Assembly: GCA_021640525.1 (NCBI GenBank)
Contig: JAJXBQ010000001.1
Coordinates: forward strand, 1 to 41,573
Reading direction: 5' to 3'
Source: Segatella copri
Lineage (GTDB): Bacteria; Bacteroidota; Bacteroidia; Bacteroidales; Bacteroidaceae
Length of the DNA stretch: 41,573 nucleotides
The position numbers were made by a program, and so were the translations under genes. Positions 10,316-41,573 of this stretch are shown here, piece by piece. The stretch's first letter is position 1. Each line of letters opens with the position of its first letter. The notes under the pieces are model-generated. The model was given only the letters and a program-made list of their open reading frames with translations. It was not told where the DNA came from and made no database searches.

Positions 10316-10351
10316 TTGAATTCTTCACTCTTCACTTTTCGTTCTTCACTT
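10316..10351 (-). repeat. Solo copy of the heptamer arm that flanks the four-helix-bundle gene
   Basis: TTGAATTCTTCACTCTTCACTTTTCGTTCTTCACTT, 35/36 identical to 37366-37401; overlaps the proA stop codon. Confidence 0.92.
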
Positions 10352-22579: not shown

Positions 22580-22609
22580 AGGTTTCTGTATTTCTTATCC
22601 CTAATGATT

Positions 22610-23392
22610 TTACTTGTTTAGCGGTCTTGCCACAAACTCAGTATGAAGGGTCTCCATCGGATGCTCCTTCAGATTGATGAGGATGTTTGGCGTATTGCCG
22701 TTGGCAATGATTACCTTGATGCCGGCATTGGCTACGTCGTGAGCGGTCTTTACTTTCGAAGTCATTCCGCCTCTGCCGTGGCTGCTCTTGCTGGCAAGGA
22801 TGTATTCACTGATGTCGCGGTCGTAATAAACCGATGGGATGATGCGGGTGGTAGGCTCGCTTGGGTCACCATTGTAGATGCCATCCACATTACTTAATAG
22901 AATCAAGGTGTCGGCATTCATCATCTTGGCAATCAAGCCAGACAACTCATCGTTATCCGTAAACATCAGCTCGGTGATGCACACGGTATCGTTCTCGTTG
23001 ACGATAGGGAGCACGTTGTTTTCCAGCATCACCTGCATGCAGGCCTCCTGGTTCTTGTACTGCTCTTCGGCACCGAAATTCTCCTTCATGGTCAATACCT
23101 GACCAATCTTTATCTTATATTCACGGAAAAGGTTGTAATAGAGACCTACGAGTTTCACCTGTCCGATGGCAGAGAACAGCTGGCGCTGCTCCACGCTGTC
23201 CAGATGATGGTCAACATGCAGTTCGGCTCTTCCGGCAGCCACGGCACCAGAAGAAACCAGAATCACCTCATAGTCGTGCTTTCTGAGCCAGACAATCTGA
23301 TCAACAATCGCCGACATTCTCGTTACATCCAGTTTTCCGTCTTCTCGGGTCAGCACGTTGCTGCCCACCTTTACTACGATTCTTTTTCCCAT
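22610..23392 (-). CDS. proB: Glutamate 5-kinase, short form without PUA domain
   Basis: IVVKVGS, LVSSGAV, PIVNENDTV, FTDNDELS, GRGGMTSKV; 260 aa. Confidence 0.95.
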   Translation of the reverse strand: MGKRIVVKVGSNVLTREDGKLDVTRMSAIVDQIVWLRKHDYEVILVSSGAVAAGRAELHVDHHLDSVEQRQLFSAIGQVKLVGLYYNLFREYKIKIGQVLTMKENFGAEEQYKNQEACMQVMLENNVLPIVNENDTVCITELMFTDNDELSGLIAKMMNADTLILLSNVDGIYNGDPSEPTTRIIPSVYYDRDISEYILASKSSHGRGGMTSKVKTAHDVANAGIKVIIANGNTPNILINLKEHPMETLHTEFVARPLNK

Positions 23393-23455
23393 TTTATGCC
23401 GATATTTAGTTGGAGCAAGGAATCTGTTGTTTCAAATTCCTTGCCCCTTCAATCA

Positions 23456-25117
23456 TTATTTCTTTTTATTGTCTTTTTCTCGAATCTCTACTCTTCGAAT
23501 CTTGCCCGAGATGGTCTTTGGCAGTTCATCTACGAATTCGATGATGCGAGGATATTTATAAGGGGCAGTCTCATGCTTTACATGATCCTGCAACTTCTTG
23601 ATGAGGTCAGGGCCCGCCATACTCTTGTATTCGTCCTTCAGTACGACGGTAGCCTTGACTACCATACCGCGGATTGGGTCTGGCACACCGGTGATGGCGC
23701 ACTCTACTACGGCAGGGTGAGTCATCAGGGCATTCTCTACCTCGAAAGGACCGATACGGTAACCAGAACTCTTGATCACGTCATCGATTCTTCCCTCAAA
23801 CCAGAAGTAGCCTTCCTCATCACGCCAAGCCATATCGCCCGTGTGATAGTAACCATCATGCCAAACCGATTTGGTCTGCTTTTCATCACGATAGTAATAT
23901 TTGAAGAGGCCGATAGGCTTGTCGTCGCCGATGCGGATGCAAATCTCGCCCTTTTCACCATCTTCGCATTCCGTCATGTCTGGGCGAAGGATGTGAACAT
24001 CATATTGTGGGTTTGGCTTGCCCATGCTTCCTGGCTTTGGTTTGATCCAAGGGAAGGTTCCGAGTGTCATCGTGGTCTCAGTCTGTCCGAAGCCCTCGTA
24101 AATCTGAACACCAGTAAGTTTCTGGAAGGTCTCTGCCACGGATGGGTTCATAGCCTCGCCCGCAGTGGTGCAGTATTCAAGACTGCTGAGGTCATACTTA
24201 GAGAAATCTTCCTGAATCATGAAGCGGTAGATAGTAGGAGGGGCACAGAAAGAGGTGATGTGGTACTTCTCAATCTGGCGCATGATCTTATCCGCCGTAA
24301 ACTTCTCGTGATCGAAGACGAAGACGGTGGCTCCGGCAAACCATTGTCCGTAGAGCTTGCCCCATACAGCTTTGCCCCAACCGGTATCGGCTACGGTAAG
24401 ATGGATGGAGTTCTCATGGAGATTGTGCCAATATACACCCGTGGTCAGATGACCGAGCGCATAGAGGTGATCATGTGCCACCATCTTTGGCTCACCTGTG
24501 GTTCCCGATGTGAAGTACATCAGCAGGGTATCTTCATTAGAGTTTACATGTTCTGGACGAACGAAAGGAGCGCATTCGTTCCATTCCTTCATCCAGTCGT
24601 GGAAACCTTCAGGGATATCCGGACCGATACTAATCAATGTCTTGACAGTCGGACTCTCTGGCATTGCCTGATTAACCTGCTCTACCACGTAATCATCGCC
24701 GCAGCAGATGATAGCCTTCACGCTTGCTGCATTGTTGCGGTAAACGATGTCGTGCTTGGTAAGCATGTGGGTAGCTGGGATGGCTACGGCACCCAACTTG
24801 TGGAGACCGAGCATGGCAAGCCACCACTGATAGTGACGCTTCAGAATCAGCATCACCTTATCATCGTGACCGATGCCGAGACTCTGGAAGTAAGCAGCAG
24901 CCTTGTCGCTCTGCTCCTTCAGGTCCTTGTATGTAAAACGGATTTCTTCGCCACGTTCACTTGCCCAAAGCAGCGCCACGTGGTCTGGTTTGATCTTTGC
25001 CCATTCATCCATCACGTCGTAGGCAAAGTTGAAATCTTCTGGTATGATAAACTCCAGATGCTCCTTGAAGTCTTGCTCTGAAGTGAATTTTGTCTGTTTT
25101 AGAAATCTCTCGATCAT
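23456..25117 (-). CDS. AMP-forming acyl-CoA synthetase (acetyl-CoA synthetase-like)
   Basis: YFTSGTTGEPK, YEGFGQTE, YHTGD, GRIDDVIKSSGYRIGPFEVE, LPKTISGKIRR. Confidence 0.93.
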   Translation of the reverse strand: MIERFLKQTKFTSEQDFKEHLEFIIPEDFNFAYDVMDEWAKIKPDHVALLWASERGEEIRFTYKDLKEQSDKAAAYFQSLGIGHDDKVMLILKRHYQWWLAMLGLHKLGAVAIPATHMLTKHDIVYRNNAASVKAIICCGDDYVVEQVNQAMPESPTVKTLISIGPDIPEGFHDWMKEWNECAPFVRPEHVNSNEDTLLMYFTSGTTGEPKMVAHDHLYALGHLTTGVYWHNLHENSIHLTVADTGWGKAVWGKLYGQWFAGATVFVFDHEKFTADKIMRQIEKYHITSFCAPPTIYRFMIQEDFSKYDLSSLEYCTTAGEAMNPSVAETFQKLTGVQIYEGFGQTETTMTLGTFPWIKPKPGSMGKPNPQYDVHILRPDMTECEDGEKGEICIRIGDDKPIGLFKYYYRDEKQTKSVWHDGYYHTGDMAWRDEEGYFWFEGRIDDVIKSSGYRIGPFEVENALMTHPAVVECAITGVPDPIRGMVVKATVVLKDEYKSMAGPDLIKKLQDHVKHETAPYKYPRIIEFVDELPKTISGKIRRVEIREKDNKKK

Positions 25118-32369: not shown

Positions 32370-34496
32370 ATGAAAAGACTTGCGTTAGTAGCATCCTTCT
32401 GTGGCATTACCATAACACAGATGATGGCACAGAACATCAACGGCGAACAGATTTCCGACACGACCCTATTTGATAAGTTCTCCAAAGAACTTGGCGAAGT
32501 GGTGGTGAAAGCTCATCTTCCTCAATATAAGAAGACCCACGAAGGACTGCTGACCAATGTGGCAGGAACCGTGCTTAGCAAGATAGGTACGGCTGAAGAT
32601 GTATTGAAGCATGTGCCGAGCATCGTGAAGAAGAAAGATGGATATGAGGTGGTCGGCAAGGGTACACCTATTATATATATCAACGGCAGGAAGATGCAAG
32701 ACATCAGTGAGTTGGATAACATCAAATCTTCCGACATCAAGAGTGTGGAAGTCATCCAGAATCCTGGAGCTACCTACGATGCTTCGGTAAATGCGGTAAT
32801 CAAAATCAAGACCATCAAGAAGAAAGGCGAAGGCTTCGGCTTTGATACTCGCTCTGTGTATTGGTACAATAAGCACGACAATACCATCCAACAGGTTAAC
32901 ATGAACTATCGTCATAATGGACTGAATCTCTTTGCCACTTATAAGTTCTCTGATGCAACATGGATGCAAAAGGCCACCTACGATCAGACTGTACATGTCG
33001 ATACGCTTTGGCAACAGCATAACAACAACGAAGTAACAGGTCGCATAGAATCGCACCGTCTTATCAGTGGTTTTAGCTATGATTTCAATGCCAATCATTC
33101 CATTGGTGCGAGATACACCTTGACCTCGCCAGGCTATTCTCGCTCAAAAGATTTTTTCGATAGTCAGGTGACTGCCGACGGTAAATTTTACGACTATATC
33201 AAAACCGATGGTCTGACGGTTGACAAGGACAATCCTAGCCATCAATTGAATGCCTACTACAACGGCACATTGGGCAAGACCACTATTGATCTGAATACCG
33301 ACCTCTATTTCAGTACAAACAGGGCTTATGCCTATAGCGATGAACAGAGCCAGGAGCACGATTCTCGTAACGTCAACTCCAAGAATCGTGTGAGCAATAA
33401 GATGGTAGCCACCAAACTCGTAATTACCTCTCCTCTCTTAGGAGGTAATCTCTCCTATGGAGCTGAGTATATCCATACCCGTCGCAACGATGACTACGAA
33501 GTGAATCGCACCGACCTCCTCGCCAACTCTTATAGCAAGTTGGAGGAGCAGACGGCAAGTCCATTTATCCAATACGCGCGTCTCACCCCGATAGGAAACA
33601 TCACGGCGGGATTGCGATACGAGTATGTAAGATTCAAGTATTATGATGCAGGCATCTATCAGCCCGAGCAGAGTCGCTCCTTCCGCAACCTCTTTCCTAC
33701 CATCAGCTATGGTGCGAAGATAGGTAAGGTAATGGCACAGTTGAGCTATTCGGTAAAGACCTCTCGTCCTTCATACAGTCAACTGAGCAATAATGTATCT
33801 TATATGAATCGATTTACTCGCCAAACAGGTAATCCTTATCTCGACAACGAAACCAATCACAGAGTGGAATTATCGGGTGTATGGAAGTTCATCCAGTTTA
33901 TGGTCAATTACAAGGACTCTCGCAATGCCATCATCTATTGGGCGGAGCAAATACCTGGGAACGAAGCTATTACCATGATAAGTCGTAAGAACGTGAAGAG
34001 TCTCAAGAGCATGACTGCCTTCATTAGTGCCGCTCCAAAGATAGGCATTTGGGCGCCGCAAATCAACTTGGGCATGCAGAAGCCCTGGCTCACCCTCCAT
34101 ACTGATGTGGCATCTTATCGCTTGAATCGTCCTATTTTCATGGGCAACTTCAACAATGCCTTCTCCTTGTCATGCGGCATCACCCTTAACGTGGATTATC
34201 GCTATCAGAGCAAGGGTAACACGATGAATGTATATCTTGCCAAAGAGCAGCATGTACTGGATGTCAGCATCAGTAAGTCATTCCTAAAGGATGCCCTTAC
34301 CTTGGAAATAAAAGGCAACGACCTGCTTTATAAATGTTGGGATGCCGACCTGCTCTATAACCAGAAGATGGAACTCTTGCAAGTATCTAAGCGGGGTACG
34401 AGAGACCTGCAACTCACCCTTCGCTATAAGTTCAATACCACACGCAGCAAGTACAAGGGAACTGGTGCCGGTAATGCAGAGCTGAATCGACTATAA
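32370..34496 (+). CDS. Outer-membrane beta-barrel protein, TonB-receptor-like (start re-called at ATG 32370)
   Basis: MKRLALVASF signal, LGEVVVKA, IYINGR, IKSVEVIQNPGATYDA, GNPYL, RYKFNTTRSKYKGTGAG..E.NRL. Confidence 0.85.
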   Translation: MKRLALVASFCGITITQMMAQNINGEQISDTTLFDKFSKELGEVVVKAHLPQYKKTHEGLLTNVAGTVLSKIGTAEDVLKHVPSIVKKKDGYEVVGKGTPIIYINGRKMQDISELDNIKSSDIKSVEVIQNPGATYDASVNAVIKIKTIKKKGEGFGFDTRSVYWYNKHDNTIQQVNMNYRHNGLNLFATYKFSDATWMQKATYDQTVHVDTLWQQHNNNEVTGRIESHRLISGFSYDFNANHSIGARYTLTSPGYSRSKDFFDSQVTADGKFYDYIKTDGLTVDKDNPSHQLNAYYNGTLGKTTIDLNTDLYFSTNRAYAYSDEQSQEHDSRNVNSKNRVSNKMVATKLVITSPLLGGNLSYGAEYIHTRRNDDYEVNRTDLLANSYSKLEEQTASPFIQYARLTPIGNITAGLRYEYVRFKYYDAGIYQPEQSRSFRNLFPTISYGAKIGKVMAQLSYSVKTSRPSYSQLSNNVSYMNRFTRQTGNPYLDNETNHRVELSGVWKFIQFMVNYKDSRNAIIYWAEQIPGNEAITMISRKNVKSLKSMTAFISAAPKIGIWAPQINLGMQKPWLTLHTDVASYRLNRPIFMGNFNNAFSLSCGITLNVDYRYQSKGNTMNVYLAKEQHVLDVSISKSFLKDALTLEIKGNDLLYKCWDADLLYNQKMELLQVSKRGTRDLQLTLRYKFNTTRSKYKGTGAGNAELNRL

Positions 34497-34558
34497 ATAT
34501 CTTTTATTACTTTTATTCGAAAGTAGAGACATTTAAGATGTTTTCCTATAAGGGGAAC

Positions 34559-34591
34559 AAAAAAGCAGCAAACCGCAAAGGGCTTGCTGCT
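34559..34591 (-). terminator. Terminator after argD
   Basis: AAAAAAGCAGCAAACCGCAAAGGGCTTGCTGCT; U-tail on the minus strand. Confidence 0.75.
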
Positions 34592-34657
34592 CACGATAGG
34601 AGTGTTTCCTATTTCTTTTATGGGTTGAGTTTTCTTTATATCCTTATCTCAATGGGT

Positions 34658-35800
34658 TTATACTTCCTTCAATACAGTTTCCAGTCTTCCGATGAAGTCA
34701 TCCACATTTTCCTTGGTCAATACCAATGGAGGGAGGATACGGAGGATGTTGGTGCCGGCGCAACCGGTGAAGCAGTGCTGCTCGTGGATGAGCTTGCTGC
34801 GAACTTCCTTGTGAGGAATATCGAGTACGGCGCCTACCATCAAGCCACGGCCACGAACCTCTGTGATGTGGCTGTTACGCTTCTGCAACTCCTTCAGCTG
34901 GGCGATGAGATATTCACCAACCTCATGCGCATTCTGTACCAGGTTCTCCTTCTCGAATACATCAAGAACGGCGAGAGCTGCTGTACATGCCAGGTGGTTG
35001 CCACCGAAAGTAGTACCCAGCTGACCATATACAGGAGTAAACTCTGGAGAAATCAACACGCCACCCATAGGGAAACCATTGCCGATACCCTTGGCTACGG
35101 TGATGAGATCAGGCTTGATGCCCAACCACTGGTGAGCGAAGAACTTACCGCTTCTGCCATAACCGCACTGGATTTCATCGCAAATCAGGATGGTGCCGTA
35201 TTTCTTGCAGGCTGCCTGCAATCCCTGAGCAAACTCAGGAGTTACCATGTTGCAACCACCTACGCCCTGGATGGCCTCGATGATACAAGCACATACATCG
35301 CCCTTGGCAAGTTCCTTCTCCCAAGCCTCCAAATCGTTGATAGGAAGATAGGTTACGTGACCATTATCATTGATAGGAGCGATGATCTTAGGATTATTTG
35401 TTACCTCTACGGCAAGGGATGTTCTGCCGTGGAAAGCCTTTTCTAAAGAGAGCACGCGGGTTCTGCCGTTGGTGAAGGAAGCCAGCTTCAAGGCATTCTC
35501 GTTTGCTTCGGCACCCGAGTTGATGAGGAAGAACTGATAATCTTCATAACCGCTTATCTTGCCCAGACGCTCAGCGAGTTTCACCTGCAACTTGTTGATG
35601 ACAGAGTTGGAATAGAAACCCAGGTTGTTCAACTGGTTGGTGAGCATCTCTACATAGTGAGGATGGCAATGACCGATGCTGATAACGGCATGACCGCCAT
35701 AAAGGTCGAGATATTCCTGACCCTTGTCGTCCCATACCTTGCAGCCCTTACCTTTTACAATATTAATATCGAAAAGAGGATATACGTCGTAAAGCTTCAT
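34658..35800 (-). CDS. argD: Acetyl/succinylornithine aminotransferase (start re-called at ATG 35800)
   Basis: YLDLYGGHAV, NSGAEANE, FHGRT, DEIQCGYGRSG, AKGIGNGFPMG, GTTFGGN. Confidence 0.93.
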   Translation of the reverse strand: MKLYDVYPLFDINIVKGKGCKVWDDKGQEYLDLYGGHAVISIGHCHPHYVEMLTNQLNNLGFYSNSVINKLQVKLAERLGKISGYEDYQFFLINSGAEANENALKLASFTNGRTRVLSLEKAFHGRTSLAVEVTNNPKIIAPINDNGHVTYLPINDLEAWEKELAKGDVCACIIEAIQGVGGCNMVTPEFAQGLQAACKKYGTILICDEIQCGYGRSGKFFAHQWLGIKPDLITVAKGIGNGFPMGGVLISPEFTPVYGQLGTTFGGNHLACTAALAVLDVFEKENLVQNAHEVGEYLIAQLKELQKRNSHITEVRGRGLMVGAVLDIPHKEVRSKLIHEQHCFTGCAGTNILRILPPLVLTKENVDDFIGRLETVLKEV

Positions 35801-35909
35801 GTTAAATCTATGTTTTAAGAAAGACAACTCATAGAGTTATCTTATTACAAACTATTTTTTATGATAGAAGAACGAATGATTTTTCATCCGTTCTTCCGAA
35901 TTCTTTTAT

Positions 35910-36911
35910 CTAAAATGCTGATGGCTTGAGTTTCAAACCTGCTGTCTGGTCGAGACCAAACATGATGTTCATGTTCTGAACAGCCTGACCTACGGCACCC
36001 TTCAGAAGATTGTCGATGCAGGAAGTAATCAGTAGCTTATCGCCATACTTATCCACATGAACCAGGCACTTGTTGGTATTCACAACCTGCTTCAAGTCGA
36101 TTGCCTTATCCACATAGTGGGTGAACTTGGCATCCTTGTAGAACTCCTTGTAACCTGCCACGATTTCCTCGATTGGCTTATCGGTCTTTACCACTTCTGT
36201 AGCGAAGATGCCACGGGCGAAGTCGCCACGGTAAGGGATGAAGTCGATGGCTGCATCGAGATAACCCTGTGTCTGCTTCAGACTCTGACGAATCTCTGGC
36301 ACGTGCTGATGGTTGAATGCCTTGTAGATGCTCATGTTGTTGTTGCGCCATGAGAAATGGGTAGTGGCGCCTGGCTTCTGACCAGCACCGGTGCTACCGG
36401 TAATGGCGTTGACAGATACATCGCTGTTGATGAGGCCCATCTTAGCAGCAGGCAACAAACCAAGTTGAATGCAGGTTGCAAAACAACCTGGGTTTGCCAC
36501 GTGCTGAGCTACGGCTATTTTTGATTCATTTATTTCTGGAAGACCATATACAAAATCGTGAGCGGCTGGGGTTGGCTGCTGGGTAGCAACCACTGTCTCT
36601 GGGGCAAGACGAAAGTCCTGTGCCAGGTCGATAATCTTCACGTTCTCCGGAACATTGTGCTCCTTCAGGAACGCCTCGCTCTTGCCATGACCGAAGCAGA
36701 AGAAGATAACATCCACCTGATCGAAAGGCATCTCGGCGGTAAACTTCAAGTCGGTCTCGCCATACAATCCCTCGTGAACCTCAGCCACTAGGTTGCCGGC
36801 GTTACTCTCGCTGTTGGCAAATACAATCTCTGCCTCAGGATGGTTGATAAGGAGGCGAATCAACTCACCTCCTGTATAACCAGCTGCTCCTAAAATACCT
36901 ACTTTTACCAT
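35910..36911 (-). CDS. argC: N-acetyl-gamma-glutamyl-phosphate reductase
   Basis: GAAGYTGGEL, VANPGCFAT, GSTGAG, IDNLLKGAVGQAVQNMN. Confidence 0.97.
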   Translation of the reverse strand: MVKVGILGAAGYTGGELIRLLINHPEAEIVFANSESNAGNLVAEVHEGLYGETDLKFTAEMPFDQVDVIFFCFGHGKSEAFLKEHNVPENVKIIDLAQDFRLAPETVVATQQPTPAAHDFVYGLPEINESKIAVAQHVANPGCFATCIQLGLLPAAKMGLINSDVSVNAITGSTGAGQKPGATTHFSWRNNNMSIYKAFNHQHVPEIRQSLKQTQGYLDAAIDFIPYRGDFARGIFATEVVKTDKPIEEIVAGYKEFYKDAKFTHYVDKAIDLKQVVNTNKCLVHVDKYGDKLLITSCIDNLLKGAVGQAVQNMNIMFGLDQTAGLKLKPSAF

Positions 36912-36914
36912 AAT

Positions 36915-37403
36915 TTAAGTGAAGAGTGAAGAACGAAGAGTGAAGAATTCTCTTGTCCTTCTGATTATTTGTTGTTTCTTTGTTTTGTCGTCTTTATGGA
37001 TGAAACGAGGAGTGCAATCAATTCATTACAGTCATTGAGCATACTTTCGAATGCATTTTGGTCAATGTAGTCTGTGTCATGAAGAAGGTTCAGCCAATAG
37101 TAAGTTTCGTTTCCTTCTTTTAGAGCTATGGAAAGTTTGTTGGCAAAGTCTTGTGGACTTTGAGCAAACTCAGCTTCTCTAACTAAAGCTCCTATGGCAG
37201 TTCCTGAGCGAAGAATTTGATTTGTAATGGTAAACTCCTTTTTGCAAGAATTGATATGTTTAACCATTTTTACAATTCTCACTGCAAAGAGATAACTCTT
37301 CGTATGTAAAGGAGAATTCTCCCTATTATATTCGTTAATATTTTTAAATCCCATCACAAAAGCATTTGAATTCTTCACTCTTCACTCTTCGTTCTTCACT
37401 TAA
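36915..37403. mobile_element. Candidate element: four-helix-bundle gene between 36-bp inverted heptamer arms
   Basis: Left arm 36915-36950 and right arm 37368-37403 are inverted, 32/36 identical, each ending in TTAA; the unit fills the argG-argC gap. Confidence 0.6.
36965..37354 (-). CDS. Four-helix-bundle protein (23S rRNA IVP / TIGR02436-like), 129 aa from ATG 37354
   Basis: KSYLFAVRIV...QILRSGTAIGALVREAEFAQS..DFANKLSIALKEGNETYYWLNLL...EL..LL.SSIKT. Confidence 0.92.
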   Translation of the reverse strand: MGFKNINEYNRENSPLHTKSYLFAVRIVKMVKHINSCKKEFTITNQILRSGTAIGALVREAEFAQSPQDFANKLSIALKEGNETYYWLNLLHDTDYIDQNAFESMLNDCNELIALLVSSIKTTKQRNNK

Positions 37404-37404
37404 C

Positions 37405-38607
37405 TTATCTTTGTTCGTCTGGGTGCATACCATAATAAACACGGAGTGGGGTAGAGCTTACCTTGATGAAGCCCTTTGCATCCTCGGCTGTCCAACCGTG
37501 CTGCATCTCACCATACTCACCGAGCTTAGACTTGGTCAAATCGTCTGGTGAATCGACACCAACAGTCTGGAAGCTAAATGGACGGAGTTTCAGGATAGCT
37601 GTACCGTTTACGTTGCGCTGAGAAGAAGTCAGCATTGCCTCGATATCCGGCATCACTGGCTCCAGGTACTGGCTCTCGTGGAGGAACATTCCGTACCAGT
37701 TGCCTACCTGATCCTTCCAATACTGCTGCCACTTGCTCAATGTGCTCTTCTCCAACAGACGGTGAGCCTCGATGATGAGCTTAGGAGCTGCAGCCTCGAA
37801 ACCTACACGACCCTTGATACCGATGATGGTGTCACCCACGTTGCAGTCGCGACCGATAGCGTAAGATGCACCAATCTCCTCAATCTTCTGGATGGCTGCA
37901 ATCTTATCATCAAACTTCTCGCCGTTGACAGCCACAATCTCACCCTTCTCGAAGGTAATCTTCAGTTCGGCCTCTTCTTCCTTGGCAGTAACGTGCTTCA
38001 GGTAAGCCTCCTCTGGGAGACCTTGGGTTGGGTCGAGAATCTCACCACCACAGATGCTGGTTCCCCAGATACCTACGTTATATGAATACTTCAACTTGGT
38101 GAAGTCTGCATAGAAGCCGTGCTCGTTCAGGTAGTCAACCTCCTCCTTACGAGAAAGCGCCTTGTCACGTGTCAAGGTGATAATCTCTACACCAGGAGCC
38201 ATCACCAGGAAGGTCATGTCGAAACGAATCTGGTCGTTGCCGGCACCTGTACTTCCGTGAGCGATAGCATCTGCACCAATCTCCTTGGCGTAACGTGCGA
38301 TGGCGATAGCCTGGAAGATACGCTCAGAAGATACAGAGATAGGGTAGCAGTTGTTGCGGAGCACATTACCGAAAATCATGTATTTCAATGATTTCTCGTA
38401 ATACTCGTGGGTAACGTCGAGAGTGACGTATGCCTTGGCGCCCAACTTATATGCATTTTCCTCGTTGGTCTTCAACTGCTCGGCAGAGAAACCACCTGTG
38501 TTAGCGCATGCTGCATAAACATCCCAGCCATCCTGGGTCAACTTCATTACTGTGTATGATGTATCGAGACCGCCGCTGAAAGCGACTACTACTTTTTTAT
38601 TTGCCAT
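37405..38607 (-). CDS. argG: Argininosuccinate synthase
   Basis: VVAFSGGLDTS, AHGSTGAGNDQIRF, IGIKGRVGFEA. Confidence 0.97.
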   Translation of the reverse strand: MANKKVVVAFSGGLDTSYTVMKLTQDGWDVYAACANTGGFSAEQLKTNEENAYKLGAKAYVTLDVTHEYYEKSLKYMIFGNVLRNNCYPISVSSERIFQAIAIARYAKEIGADAIAHGSTGAGNDQIRFDMTFLVMAPGVEIITLTRDKALSRKEEVDYLNEHGFYADFTKLKYSYNVGIWGTSICGGEILDPTQGLPEEAYLKHVTAKEEEAELKITFEKGEIVAVNGEKFDDKIAAIQKIEEIGASYAIGRDCNVGDTIIGIKGRVGFEAAAPKLIIEAHRLLEKSTLSKWQQYWKDQVGNWYGMFLHESQYLEPVMPDIEAMLTSSQRNVNGTAILKLRPFSFQTVGVDSPDDLTKSKLGEYGEMQHGWTAEDAKGFIKVSSTPLRVYYGMHPDEQR

Positions 38608-38683
38608 TTTATTTTATGTTTAATATGTGGTGAATAATGTTTAGATGGCATTCTTGCCAACACCTTAAATTATATATAAGGAT

Positions 38684-39295
38684 TTAAATTTCTGCAGATG
38701 GACCGTCAATCTTGCGGATTCTCTCAATCACTTCCTGAGGAAGCTTGATAGGCAGATGCTCCTCTGGGTCGAAGAGCATGGCGGTGCAGATGCAGTATTT
38801 GCGGTTGGTACGATGGAGGACATCCACGTTGATGCAACCCTCGCAACCACGCCAGAATGACTCATCATCGGTCAGGTCGGCGAAGGTAACAGGAAGATAA
38901 CCCAACTGGGTGTTCATCTTCATGACAGCCGAACCGGATGTCAAAGAGAAAATCTTGGCATGAGGCCATCGCTGTCGGGCAAGCGTAAAGGTCAGGTTCT
39001 TGATACGCTTAGCCAGTCCCATACCACGGAAGTCTGGGTGAACGATCAAACCTGATGTGGTAACATAGTGCTTGTTGCCCCATGTTTCGATGTAGCTGAA
39101 ACCTGCGAACTTTTCGCCCTGGAGAGCGATGACCGCCTTGGCTTCGCGCATCTTGGTGGCAACATACTCTGGTGAACGCTTGGCGATACCAGAACCACGC
39201 TTCTTTGCAGCTTCTGCAATTGTAGTCAGAATGGTGTCGATGTACTTGATGTGACTTTCGTCAGCCACCATTACTTTAACTTCTGCTTCTTCCAT
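38684..39295 (-). CDS. GNAT N-acyltransferase, probable ArgA-equivalent
   Basis: SGLIVHPDFRGMGLA acyl-CoA motif; FWRGCEGC...C.C; lies between argR and argG. Confidence 0.8.
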   Translation of the reverse strand: MEEAEVKVMVADESHIKYIDTILTTIAEAAKKRGSGIAKRSPEYVATKMREAKAVIALQGEKFAGFSYIETWGNKHYVTTSGLIVHPDFRGMGLAKRIKNLTFTLARQRWPHAKIFSLTSGSAVMKMNTQLGYLPVTFADLTDDESFWRGCEGCINVDVLHRTNRKYCICTAMLFDPEEHLPIKLPQEVIERIRKIDGPSAEI

Positions 39296-39363
39296 TTTTT
39301 CTCTTCTATCTTAAAATGTTTTTGTTTTAATATTCTTTCTTTATATTAATAAAGTGTATATTT

Positions 39364-39377
39364 TGCATAAAAATGTA
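39364..39377. promoter_or_regulatory. Candidate ARG box between argR and the GNAT gene
   Basis: TGCATAAAAATGTA. Confidence 0.4.
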
Positions 39378-39383
39378 AACACC

Positions 39384-39872
39384 TTATACATATTTATGGT
39401 GAACGTCTGGAATAACCTCTGCTAGTGCATTGATGATTTCCTCTTCTGTTGTACCTTTCTTCTTAACCAGAAAAATGGTGTCGTCACCTGCAATGGTTCC
39501 CAGAATTTGGGGAATATCGCTATTATCTATATTATAGGCAATGCTGCTTGCATATCCCGGACGGGTCTTGATCACGACCATGTTCCCGGAGAAGTTGATA
39601 GACTGGAATCCGGTATTCACCATCATCTTGCTCACTGGAATATGGTTTGATACTCTCTTATATAATGTATCGTTGGGCAGGACATACGCATATTTTCCAC
39701 TCGAAGATGCTGCCTTTGCCACCTTGAGCAGTTTTAAGTCACGGCTCAATGTGGCTTGTGTAATCTTAAAGCCTTCTTTGTGAAGAGCCTCCAAAAGTTG
39801 GTCTTGCGAACTTAACTCCTGACTTGATATAAGCATCTTCAAAGTTTCCAATCTGCTATTCTTTGCCTTCAT
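39384..39872 (-). CDS. argR: Arginine repressor (start re-called at ATG 39872)
   Basis: SSQDQL, TQATLSRDL, KTRPGYA, GTIAGDDT. Confidence 0.97.
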   Translation of the reverse strand: MKAKNSRLETLKMLISSQELSSQDQLLEALHKEGFKITQATLSRDLKLLKVAKAASSSGKYAYVLPNDTLYKRVSNHIPVSKMMVNTGFQSINFSGNMVVIKTRPGYASSIAYNIDNSDIPQILGTIAGDDTIFLVKKKGTTEEEIINALAEVIPDVHHKYV

Positions 39873-39876
39873 ATGC

Positions 39877-40010
39877 TGTATTTTTATTCGTTTAACGGCT
39901 GCAAAATTACAATATATTTTGTAAATAACCAAATAAAATGAAAGAAAAATGCATAAAATAACATTATTTTGTCTTTTGTTATGCATAAATGCGGAATAAA
40001 TATGCATATA
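39877..40010 (-). promoter_or_regulatory. argR promoter with candidate ARG boxes
   Basis: Minus-strand TAATTTTG at 39902-09; TGTATTTTTATTCG 39877-90; several TGCATA half-sites at 39950-40010. Confidence 0.5.
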
Positions 40011-40203
40011 TTGCCTTCTTTCATACAAATATTCTACACTTGGCTTTTGATGCAGAATAGCCTTTTTATCCATTTTAAGCTAATTATTGTAAATTATTGA
40101 AAAAAAGTCTACGGAAACCGCATCGGTTCAATTAGTTTTTGTTATCTTTGCAGACACAATTCTTAGATTATAATCAACTTAATATAAAATAAACCTTTAG
40201 AAG

Positions 40204-41532
40204 ATGGAAAAAATGAATGTTAAACCAGCAGAAGGTAAGCTGGGAATCTTGGTTGTTGGTTGTGGCGCAGTAGCTACTACCTTCATGACCGGTGTTTTCA
40301 TGACTCGTAAGGGACTTGCAAAGCCAGTAGGTTCAATGACTCAGTACGACAAGATTCGTGTCGGCAAGGGTGCAGACAAGAAATATTTGCACTATAAGGA
40401 CATCGTTCCACTTGCAGACCTTAATGATATCGTATTCGGTACTTGGGATGTTTATCCGCAGAATGCTTATCAGGCAGCTATGTATGCTGAGGTATTGAAG
40501 GAGAAAGATATCAATCCTGTACGCGAGGAGTTGGAGAAGGTAGTACCAATGAAGGCTGCTTTCGACAAGAACTATGCAAAGCGTCTTGATGGCGATAATG
40601 TGAAAGATTGCAAGACTCGCTGGGAGATGGTAGAGGCTCTTCGTCAGGATATCCGCGACTTCAAGGAGAAGAACGGTTGTGCCCGTATCGTTGTTATCTG
40701 GGCAGCATCTACCGAAATCTATGTTCCTGTAGATATGGAGATTCATGGTACATTGGCAGCACTTGAGGCTGCAATGAAGGCTGACGACCGCCAGCATGTA
40801 GCTCCATCCATGTGCTACGCTTATGCTGCTTTGACAGAGGGTGCTCCTTTCATCATGGGCGCTCCTAATACAACTGTTGATATTCCTGCAATGTGGGAAC
40901 TCGCAGAGAAGACCAAGATGCCTATTGCCGGTAAGGACTTCAAGACAGGCCAGACTCTTGTCAAGAGTGGTTTCGCTCCTATCATCGGTACCCGTTGTCT
41001 CGGCTTGAATGGCTGGTTCTCTACCAATATTCTCGGCAACCGTGATGGTCTCGTTCTCGATGAGCCAGCAAACTTCCATACCAAGGAGGTAAGTAAACTC
41101 TCTACTCTTGAGACAATCCTGAAACCAGAAGCTCAGCCAGATCTCTATGGTCATGGTAACGATGAAGATACTCAGTACTATCACAAGGTACGTATCAACT
41201 ATTATCCACCTCGCAACGATAACAAGGAGGGTTGGGATAATATCGATATCTTCGGCTGGATGGGTTACCCAATGCAGATTAAGATTAACTTCCTCTGCCG
41301 TGATTCAATCCTTGCTGCTCCATTGCTGCTCGACCTTACATTGTTGAGCGATCTTGCTGCTCGTGCAGGCCGTTTCGGAATCCAGCGTTTCTTGAGTTTC
41401 TTCCTTAAGGCACCTATGCACGATTATACTAAGGGTGAAGAGCCTGTAAACCATCTCTACCAGCAGTATACGATGCTGAAGAATGCTATTCGTGAGATGG
41501 GAGGTTACGAGGCCGATGAGGAAATCGACTAA
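40204..41532 (+). CDS. ino1: Myo-inositol-1-phosphate synthase
   Basis: VGCGAVATT, WAASTE, GKDFKTGQT, NILGNRDG, DNKEGWD, CRDSILAAPL; TATCTTTG promoter at 40143-50. Confidence 0.95.
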   Translation: MEKMNVKPAEGKLGILVVGCGAVATTFMTGVFMTRKGLAKPVGSMTQYDKIRVGKGADKKYLHYKDIVPLADLNDIVFGTWDVYPQNAYQAAMYAEVLKEKDINPVREELEKVVPMKAAFDKNYAKRLDGDNVKDCKTRWEMVEALRQDIRDFKEKNGCARIVVIWAASTEIYVPVDMEIHGTLAALEAAMKADDRQHVAPSMCYAYAALTEGAPFIMGAPNTTVDIPAMWELAEKTKMPIAGKDFKTGQTLVKSGFAPIIGTRCLGLNGWFSTNILGNRDGLVLDEPANFHTKEVSKLSTLETILKPEAQPDLYGHGNDEDTQYYHKVRINYYPPRNDNKEGWDNIDIFGWMGYPMQIKINFLCRDSILAAPLLLDLTLLSDLAARAGRFGIQRFLSFFLKAPMHDYTKGEEPVNHLYQQYTMLKNAIREMGGYEADEEID

Positions 41533-41573
41533 TTAGGTTATTTCATTTAATACTACACCTTATTATATAAGGC

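Follow-up and report, generated by a model that had tools for sequence, protein, structure and literature searches.

A four-helix-bundle gene between inverted heptamer arms in the argG-argC gap of Segatella copri points to a little-described kind of selfish cassette

The gap between argG and argC in a Segatella copri genome (assembly GCA_021640525.1; the window analysed is positions 1 to 41,573 of contig JAJXBQ010000001.1) holds a small gene enclosed by two inverted arrays of 7-base repeats. The best explanation, to which we give a probability of roughly 55%, is that this unit is a promoterless selfish cassette, in which a gene for a four-helix-bundle (IVS-protein/Avd-like) protein is enclosed by a pair of inverted arms, each made up of roughly four or five 7-mers. 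The cassette fills the stop-to-start gap of its host operon in the host direction, strains differ by its presence or absence, and gene-less, half and chimeric copies litter the genome. Selfish cassettes of this kind seem to have been little described so far; that this one moves over evolutionary time is well supported. The features of the locus are as follows.

37405–38607, minus strand: argG, argininosuccinate synthase, upstream host gene; stop TAA at 37405–37407; NCBIfam argG E 5.8e-72, 243 bits, below the cut-off of 268
37401–37407, minus strand: upstream copy of a 7-bp direct repeat, TAAGTTA (TAAATTA in allele B, described below); contains the argG stop
37368–37403, minus strand: 5' arm of the mRNA, TTAA plus four GTGAAGA-type heptamers plus ATTC
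36965–37354, minus strand: four-helix-bundle gene, 129 aa from its ATG (PF05635/TIGR02436)
36915–36950, minus strand: 3' arm of the mRNA, reverse complement of the 5' arm; spans -39 to -4 relative to the argC ATG
36911–36917, minus strand: downstream copy of the 7-bp direct repeat, TAAATTA; contains the A of the argC ATG
36918–37400, minus strand: cassette proper, 483 bp, with ends AGTGAAGA ... TCTTCACT
36913–37404: segment missing from the commonest empty allele, 492 nt
35910–36911, minus strand: argC, N-acetyl-gamma-glutamyl-phosphate reductase, downstream host gene; TIGR01850 307 bits, cut-off 234
10322–10349, minus strand: solo copy of the same heptamer arm where an aldehyde-dehydrogenase-family gene (probably proA) ends, ahead of a carbamoyltransferase gene

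Both arms are 36 nt long, identical at 32/36 positions and different solely in the place of the ACGAAGA unit; one lies 1 nt from the argG stop and the other 3 nt from the argC ATG (36911), exactly as the sequence-only reading had described. The enclosed ORF is more AT-rich than its neighbours, as had also been claimed (GC 0.346 vs 0.486–0.502 for argD, argC, argG and the GNAT gene), and its GC3 is 0.32 vs 0.57–0.58 for the neighbouring genes. An in-frame GTG at 37378 falls within the arm, and most close homologues of the protein are 129 aa long. In agreement with the same reading, transposase and integrase families found no match among the window ORFs scanned (26 ORFs and 12 window proteins; at about 22600–25100 of the window the automatic pick probably represents opposite-strand frames). 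Rfam gave no match in 34000–41573, and the cassette thus lies outside any rRNA gene. A terminator scan of the locus returned 0 sites and a sigma-70 promoter scan 3 sites vs 1.7 expected, with a consensus that is the wrong one for the host phylum; PADLOC matched 0 families, short of its anti-phage defence model, and PHROGs matched 0.

Elsewhere in the window, the junctions at about 23400 (acyl-CoA synthetase|proB), about 25800 (proC|XRE-cupin) and 35830–35910 (argC|argD) hold same-clade cassettes in other species, which suggests that this pro/arg cluster is a cassette hot spot and points to local hopping. Other short repeat or hairpin families occupy the argG|argC and argC|argD gaps at four loci of more distant relatives, one of them being another heptamer pair.

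The protein had been related from its sequence to IVS proteins and to Avd, and both profiles and structures bear this out. The ORF scored 101.4 bits against TIGR02436 (cut-off 24) and 87 bits against PF05635 (cut-off 33.8), and close homologues are labelled 'four helix bundle protein [Prevotella sp.]'. An AlphaFold model (pLDDT 90) has helices at residues 15–37, 42–61, 67–93 and 99–128. It superposes on BT_0352 (2RLD) with TM 0.79–0.82, 52–57% identity and an rmsd of 0.8–2.4 Å, it also matches XCC0516 (2GSC) and, more weakly, Avd with TM 0.66 (4DWL) and 0.67 (8UB7), the Avd comparisons ranging over the query from 0.62 to 0.67 at weak Foldseek E-values of 0.05–0.075 and 14–17% identity. Profile searches retrieved 2RLD at E 1e-41 and XCC0516 (2GSC) at E 1e-27, and each of these solved structures contains five chains. 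Members of the PF05635-type family occur in 317/401 genomes of the genus. Comparing the two filled alleles A and B of this locus, dN/dS of the four-helix gene is 0.07–0.08, and the protein is therefore conserved under purifying selection; dS is 0.58–0.60 in this gene vs 0.20–0.26 in the flanks.

We then asked how regularly such genes carry arms, calling a locus armed when an inverted arm pair scored at least 15. Matches were obtained for 200 of 202 submitted family loci, leaving 103 non-redundant at 90%, mostly from the same genus with a few metagenome contigs of other origin. Arms were present at 77/103 family loci (median length 35 nt) vs 7/127 neighbouring control genes and 19/300 swapped pairs, with 26/103 under the threshold. 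A set of 80 loci from many phyla, five of them too close to a contig end, gave 61/75 armed vs 18/300 swapped pairs, with period 7 in all 61, and loci on viral contigs were armed in 12/16 cases. Other four-helix paralogues are thus flanked by inverted arms, as the sequence-only reading had anticipated. These counts, with the arm-word comparison below, effectively refute the idea that an ordinary transferred gene came to lie by chance between two independent dispersed repeats: same-word arrays are indeed frequent in the source genome (27–32 copies), but each pair of arms in the family is self-complementary with its own word, at rates far from the 7/127 of the controls.

The arm words follow the protein. 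The 77 armed loci occupy 39 sites, and the cosine of arm 5-mers between unrelated sites rises from 0.04–0.05 at protein identities below 50% to 0.30–0.34 at 50–69% and 0.57 at 70% or more, over pairs that are not independent of one another. Period-7 words characterise the clade of this protein and periods of mostly 8–10 the other main clade; the inner stems co-vary too (ATTC/GAAT, ATCC/GGAT, ATTTGCTACCGC/GCGGAAGCAAAT). Paralogues within one genome carry differing arm words, sister cassettes with the words TGTTGAA, TGAACTT and GGAGTTAA form natural word/protein pairs, and argG|argC itself is occupied by members of at least two protein subclades. Since related proteins bear related arm words at unrelated junctions, gene and arms travel as one unit, and we consider it highly likely that this unit has moved between sites. 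Among the loci collected no recent insertion was caught, and identical cassettes were found only at the same site. Given the co-variation of word and protein and the RNA binding described for Avd in the available text of bioRxiv 10.1101/2023.10.23.563531, we think it somewhat probable that the protein binds its arm word. Against the selfish-cassette reading, arm words also change in place, with several words among ten loci at sdhA|sdhB. At this site, the ten loci show at least five different 8-mer words, each pair self-complementary, which suggests concerted change in place or repeated replacement.

The occupied sites are junctions of housekeeping operons, for example argC|argD, sdhA|sdhB, rpoB|rpoC, pta|ackA and dxr|rseP (names inferred from Pfam matches). 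Armed loci are co-oriented with both flanking genes in 69/77 cases, the 5' arm begins within 15 nt of a stop codon in 48/75, and the 3' arm ends within 20 nt of the next ATG in 49/71, so that the earlier description of a small element at stop codons within operons can be extended to the family. Among 75 neighbouring genes, none matched a transposase, integrase or reverse transcriptase family, and six matched nothing.

To follow the history of the argG|argC site, 401 genomes of the genus were searched at the DNA level, which gave 30 loci of this junction. The closest set comprised the 25 loci with argC at least 97% identical, source genome included; of the five distant ones set aside, four hold a cassette and one a pspC gene. 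Within the closest set 17 alleles are empty, three are filled, three contain a pspC-domain gene and two contain short remnants. The natural empty alleles read TAA-T-ATG, TAA-TT-ATG or TAA-ATT-ATG, rather than the TAA-G-TTAA-ATT-ATG that the sequence-only reading had expected after removal of the unit. The check that it had suggested, an alignment of relatives to look for empty sites, found them at 17/25 loci, but the TTAA duplication that it had also asked about is absent. Of 19 public sequencing runs, all available as assembled contigs rather than raw reads, four were compared with this site, and the joint 36912>37405 (a 492-nt skip) was present in 2/2 DNA-type assemblies and in 0/2 RNA-run assemblies. 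Contig depth in the two DNA-type runs was 73 and 42 for the joined form and 5 and 20 for the cassette interior, depths of this kind being unable to rank genes.

Metagenome contigs supplied the second filled allele, B, with a protein 91% identical and a perfect 7-bp direct repeat, TAAATTA, at its borders. Removing the 490 nt between the repeats from allele B yields the empty allele of genome G168 at 122/123 positions. All 17 empty alleles match allele B in their argG 3' haplotype, which codes for NEER (a silent change sets one of them apart), and the haplotype coding DEQR is shared by allele A and five relatives of the pspC/remnant group. Several alleles of that group retain one arm or a piece of one, and at this junction more distant species encode proteins that are 78–83% identical. 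On the tree of the flanks, filled and empty alleles are intermingled, and dS is higher in the cassette than in its flanks, which indicates that alleles have been exchanged by recombination. The empty allele here would most simply be the product of a later precise loss between the 7-bp repeats rather than a pre-insertion site, and a single old insertion followed by precise loss may be the simplest history of argG|argC. Such loss between short direct repeats bordering inverted repeats resembles the precise excision of Tn10. What this locus adds is a base-precise pair of filled and empty alleles in close strains, evidence on direction, and a negative answer on target duplication. In several relatives a 65-aa PspC-domain gene replaces the cassette, often beside one leftover arm.

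The same pair of alleles could be read in the opposite direction, as the insertion of a non-autonomous, MITE-like DNA transposon whose terminal inverted repeats are served by a transposase in trans and whose 7-bp target duplication is TAAATTA. Allele B does correspond to the empty allele with 483 bp and one 7-bp copy added, 122/123 flank positions being identical, and gene-less inverted pairs exist, as expected of such elements (16 in the source genome, plus one on contig C139). Nevertheless, we regard this reading as very improbable. Direct repeats of at least 6 nt at the arm ends were no commoner than chance (9/77 vs 191/2000 swapped pairs). Five further polymorphic sites, occupied by a cassette in relatives, carry an unrelated short spacer in the source genome, with no duplication. 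The strict sense orientation, the wholly different terminal words of the subfamilies and the lack of an adjoining transposase among the 75 neighbours speak against it as well. A TTAA or any other target duplication was rejected as a family rule on the basis of the five polymorphic sites and the 9/77 vs 191/2000 comparison.

Beyond the cassette, a genome search for GTGAAGA-type arms, which the sequence-only reading had called for, showed numerous arrays; the cassette gene is the sole PF05635 gene found in the assembly (489 contigs). In total, the source genome contains 196 period-7 arrays placed like orphan arms, with 5'-type words mostly after stops and their complements before starts; 116/134 lie between co-oriented genes vs 846/1310 background gaps. 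Several of its abundant array words border four-helix genes in the genomes of close relatives, and most of its heptamer families are without a cognate protein in the assembly. Chimeras of a GTGAAGA 5' arm with the 3' arm of another family number five by strict pattern, and that 3' arm occurs 17 times. Among 30 arrays taken from five relatives, an orthologous junction existed in the source genome for 23, with the array present in 14 and absent in 9 by a crude flag. Conversely, at 31 source-genome junction matches where relatives hold a cassette, an array was found in only 4 by the score used, all of other words, which means that a simple relic origin does not account for the solo arrays at the junctions sampled. 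The notion that they are relics where relatives hold cassettes accordingly has little support in this sample (4/31).

Some of these copies have unusual structures. A gene-less miniature at C139:6361-6501, within an ABC-transporter operon, has both arms and an 85-bp interior that shares short motifs with the inner ends of the cassette. Chimeric spacers in which a GTGAAGA 5' arm meets a TCATAAAG-TTCAAAG 3' arm show a near-identical junction on C238, C276, C398, C411, C414 and other contigs and at loci L350, L358 and L366, and the TCATAAAG-TTCAAAG arm is also joined to other 5' words. A small inverted heptamer pair stands within a coding sequence at C352:1794-2065, which looks like trpE, and its counterpart in genome G074 (L348) is three units longer, in frame. 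Five arrays on C270, C363, C211 and C461 run on into a conserved G+C-rich module starting ACAACGTTCGGCG, which may be an independent small hairpin that accompanies the arm.

The abundance of arrays raises the question of whether the protein is instead a domesticated RNA-binding regulator, with heptamer sites at its own gene and at many stop/start junctions forming a post-transcriptional regulon that acts on translation coupling or mRNA stability. Strong purifying selection would fit such a role, as would the roughly 30 same-word arrays at gene ends, several of them near amino-acid and pyrimidine synthesis genes as judged by N-termini, and the position of the 3' arm over the argC initiation region; a regulatory role has also been proposed for TAACTGA repeats (PMC4679880, in its available part). 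We nonetheless hold this account to be improbable, because the gene is absent from this site in 17/25 of the closest genomes, and five genomes without the cassette at argG|argC keep 5–20 exact arm motifs each with no close copy of this protein found. Moreover, the arrays are polymorphic (missing at the 9/23 orthologous junctions), and most array families of the source genome lack a matching protein.

At the RNA level, the arms are predicted to form a duplex of -46.4 kcal/mol that is interrupted by a single 2x2 loop; the second pair of mismatches becomes G-U on the minus strand. The ~36-bp duplex with a 2x2 loop proposed from the letters is therefore reproduced by folding, but a slipped register with a perfect 22-bp duplex competes with it, and the mean in-register pair probability is 0.39. 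Positions -39 to -4 of argC lie buried in the folded model, so that an effect of the stem on argC coupling is plausible. Arm mismatches across the loci showed no sense-strand excess of G-U (41 vs 65; 38 vs 37; from an ungapped alignment in which the register is ambiguous), and selection on an RNA stem is thus not shown.

Such a stem could also mark a true mRNA intervening sequence, in which RNase III would cut the stem, free the gene-bearing loop and split the argG and argC messages without re-ligation; the arms would then be mainly a processing signal. This account is compatible with a selfish cassette, but we judge it unlikely. The predicted 36-bp stem and an RNase III gene in the source genome agree with it, and a precedent exists in the IVS of Coxiella burnetii, where heptamers occupy the 5' part and RNase III cleaves at the first of them (PMC4990558, available part). 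Weakly against it, the two RNA-run assemblies, as contigs, contain no joint across the cassette, and in run X14 a 468-nt contig over 36925-37392 overlaps contigs that enter the arms from argC and from argG, in a library that may include DNA. The missing sense-strand G-U bias also speaks against it, as does the purifying selection on the gene, in contrast to the decay of the Coxiella ORF. Arm-to-arm joints in X14 that skip 398–417 nt were rejected as signs of excision, as other or unknown letters lie between the arms, and are best read as gene-less hairpins elsewhere; missing cover over the cassette in run X13 carries no evidential weight. For the relative BT_0352, the supplement files searched of a B. 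thetaiotaomicron dRNA-seq study (PMC7366714) list only predicted terminators adjoining the gene and no associated transcript, and the available part of PMC8700078 contains mentions only.

Returning to the selfish cassette, we propose that it is transcribed together with its host operon and that its arms may pair as a stem that rejoins the host stop and start. The insert would be tolerated because of this rejoining, much as the stem of an rRNA IVS replaces an rRNA helix. The encoded protein, which like its solved relatives is probably pentameric, would recognise its cognate repeat word on nucleic acid in single-stranded form. This recognition could favour the persistence of the cassette or its arrival at new junctions by way of host enzymes, on which it would have to rely because it encodes no recombinase. 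From an occupied site, the cassette would spread between strains by homologous recombination in the flanking genes and be lost by deletion, here presumably precisely between the 7-bp direct repeats. Cleavage of the stem by RNase III in the mRNA is a tentative addition that we lean against, and participation of a reverse transcriptase in new insertions is doubtful. A bolder, speculative version would make the cassette one of a widespread class of mobile elements without an enzyme of their own, in which an Avd-like pentamer reads its cognate arms on the transcript, recruits host reverse transcriptase or recombination machinery, and places the cassette, or its arms alone, at further stop|start junctions with no duplication of the target; rRNA IVS would be copies that landed in rRNA genes, and the abundant bacterial heptamer repeats their footprints. 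We think this version unlikely to hold as a whole.

The cassette links three loose ends, namely a large protein family, the origin of rRNA IVS and the over-represented intergenic heptamer repeats, and the 7-base repeats that many bacteria carry without explanation may derive from such cassettes. Should the protein read a 7-base word that varies along with its own sequence, it would also be a small sequence-specific nucleic-acid binder. Near-identical gut strains with and without the cassette differ by one clean segment of 490–492 nt, so the question is testable.

MITEs and REP-type repeats are short non-autonomous inverted-repeat units in intergenic DNA that have gene-less copies. The cassette resembles MITEs and other transposons with terminal inverted repeats in its own terminal inverted repeats and gene-less copies, and it differs in having no general target duplication, in carrying a conserved non-enzymatic gene and in an arm sequence that turns over with the protein. 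It fails as a MITE on target duplication, one site alone fitting a 7-bp repeat. Published heptamer repeats, such as GGGAATC of Xanthomonas and GGGGA(C/T)T of Nostoc (PMC4692102) and TAACTGA of Beggiatoaceae, cyanobacteria and Bacteroidetes (PMC4679880), are alike in period 7, mostly about four units, an intergenic position by start or stop codons and frequent inverted pairs (70 in X. campestris). Unlike our account of the arms, the available parts of both papers propose roles as G-quadruplexes or translational regulators, name no carrier gene and lack the words 'four helix'. Likewise, a literature search that covered a minority of subscription journals found no description linking PF05635-type genes to inverted heptamer arms at operon junctions.

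Avd of the diversity-generating retroelements (DGRs) is described as a positively charged, barrel-shaped pentamer that resembles S23 proteins and binds an RNA element of the DGR (bioRxiv 10.1101/2023.10.23.563531; PMC10053308; available parts). The cassette protein shares its four-helix-bundle fold (TM 0.62–0.67, with weak E-values), but no reverse transcriptase was found among the window ORFs or the 75 neighbours, the two RT loci of the source genome being on other contigs, and the cassette is not a DGR. The closest solved relatives are BT_0352 and XCC0516, whose entry titles give no function or nucleic-acid ligand. The nearest system overall is the ORF-bearing 23S rRNA IVS, known from helix 45 of Coxiella burnetii and from Leptospira (PMC4990558, available part), IVP ORFs residing also in CPR rRNA insertions (bioRxiv 10.1101/2024.02.27.582315, available part). 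Shared features are a PF05635 protein, a similar size (428–444 nt vs 483 bp), terminal inverted repeats able to form a stem (predicted here), heptamers in the 5' part, the lack of a mobility gene and a position within a transcribed unit. In contrast to rRNA IVS, the cassette lies between protein-coding genes, has no Rfam match and occupies dozens of different sites; its ORF is under purifying selection where that of Coxiella decays, and cleavage of its stem is putative where rRNA IVS are cut by RNase III. In its anatomy the cassette is an ORF-bearing IVS that, standing outside rRNA, falls outside the IVS class.
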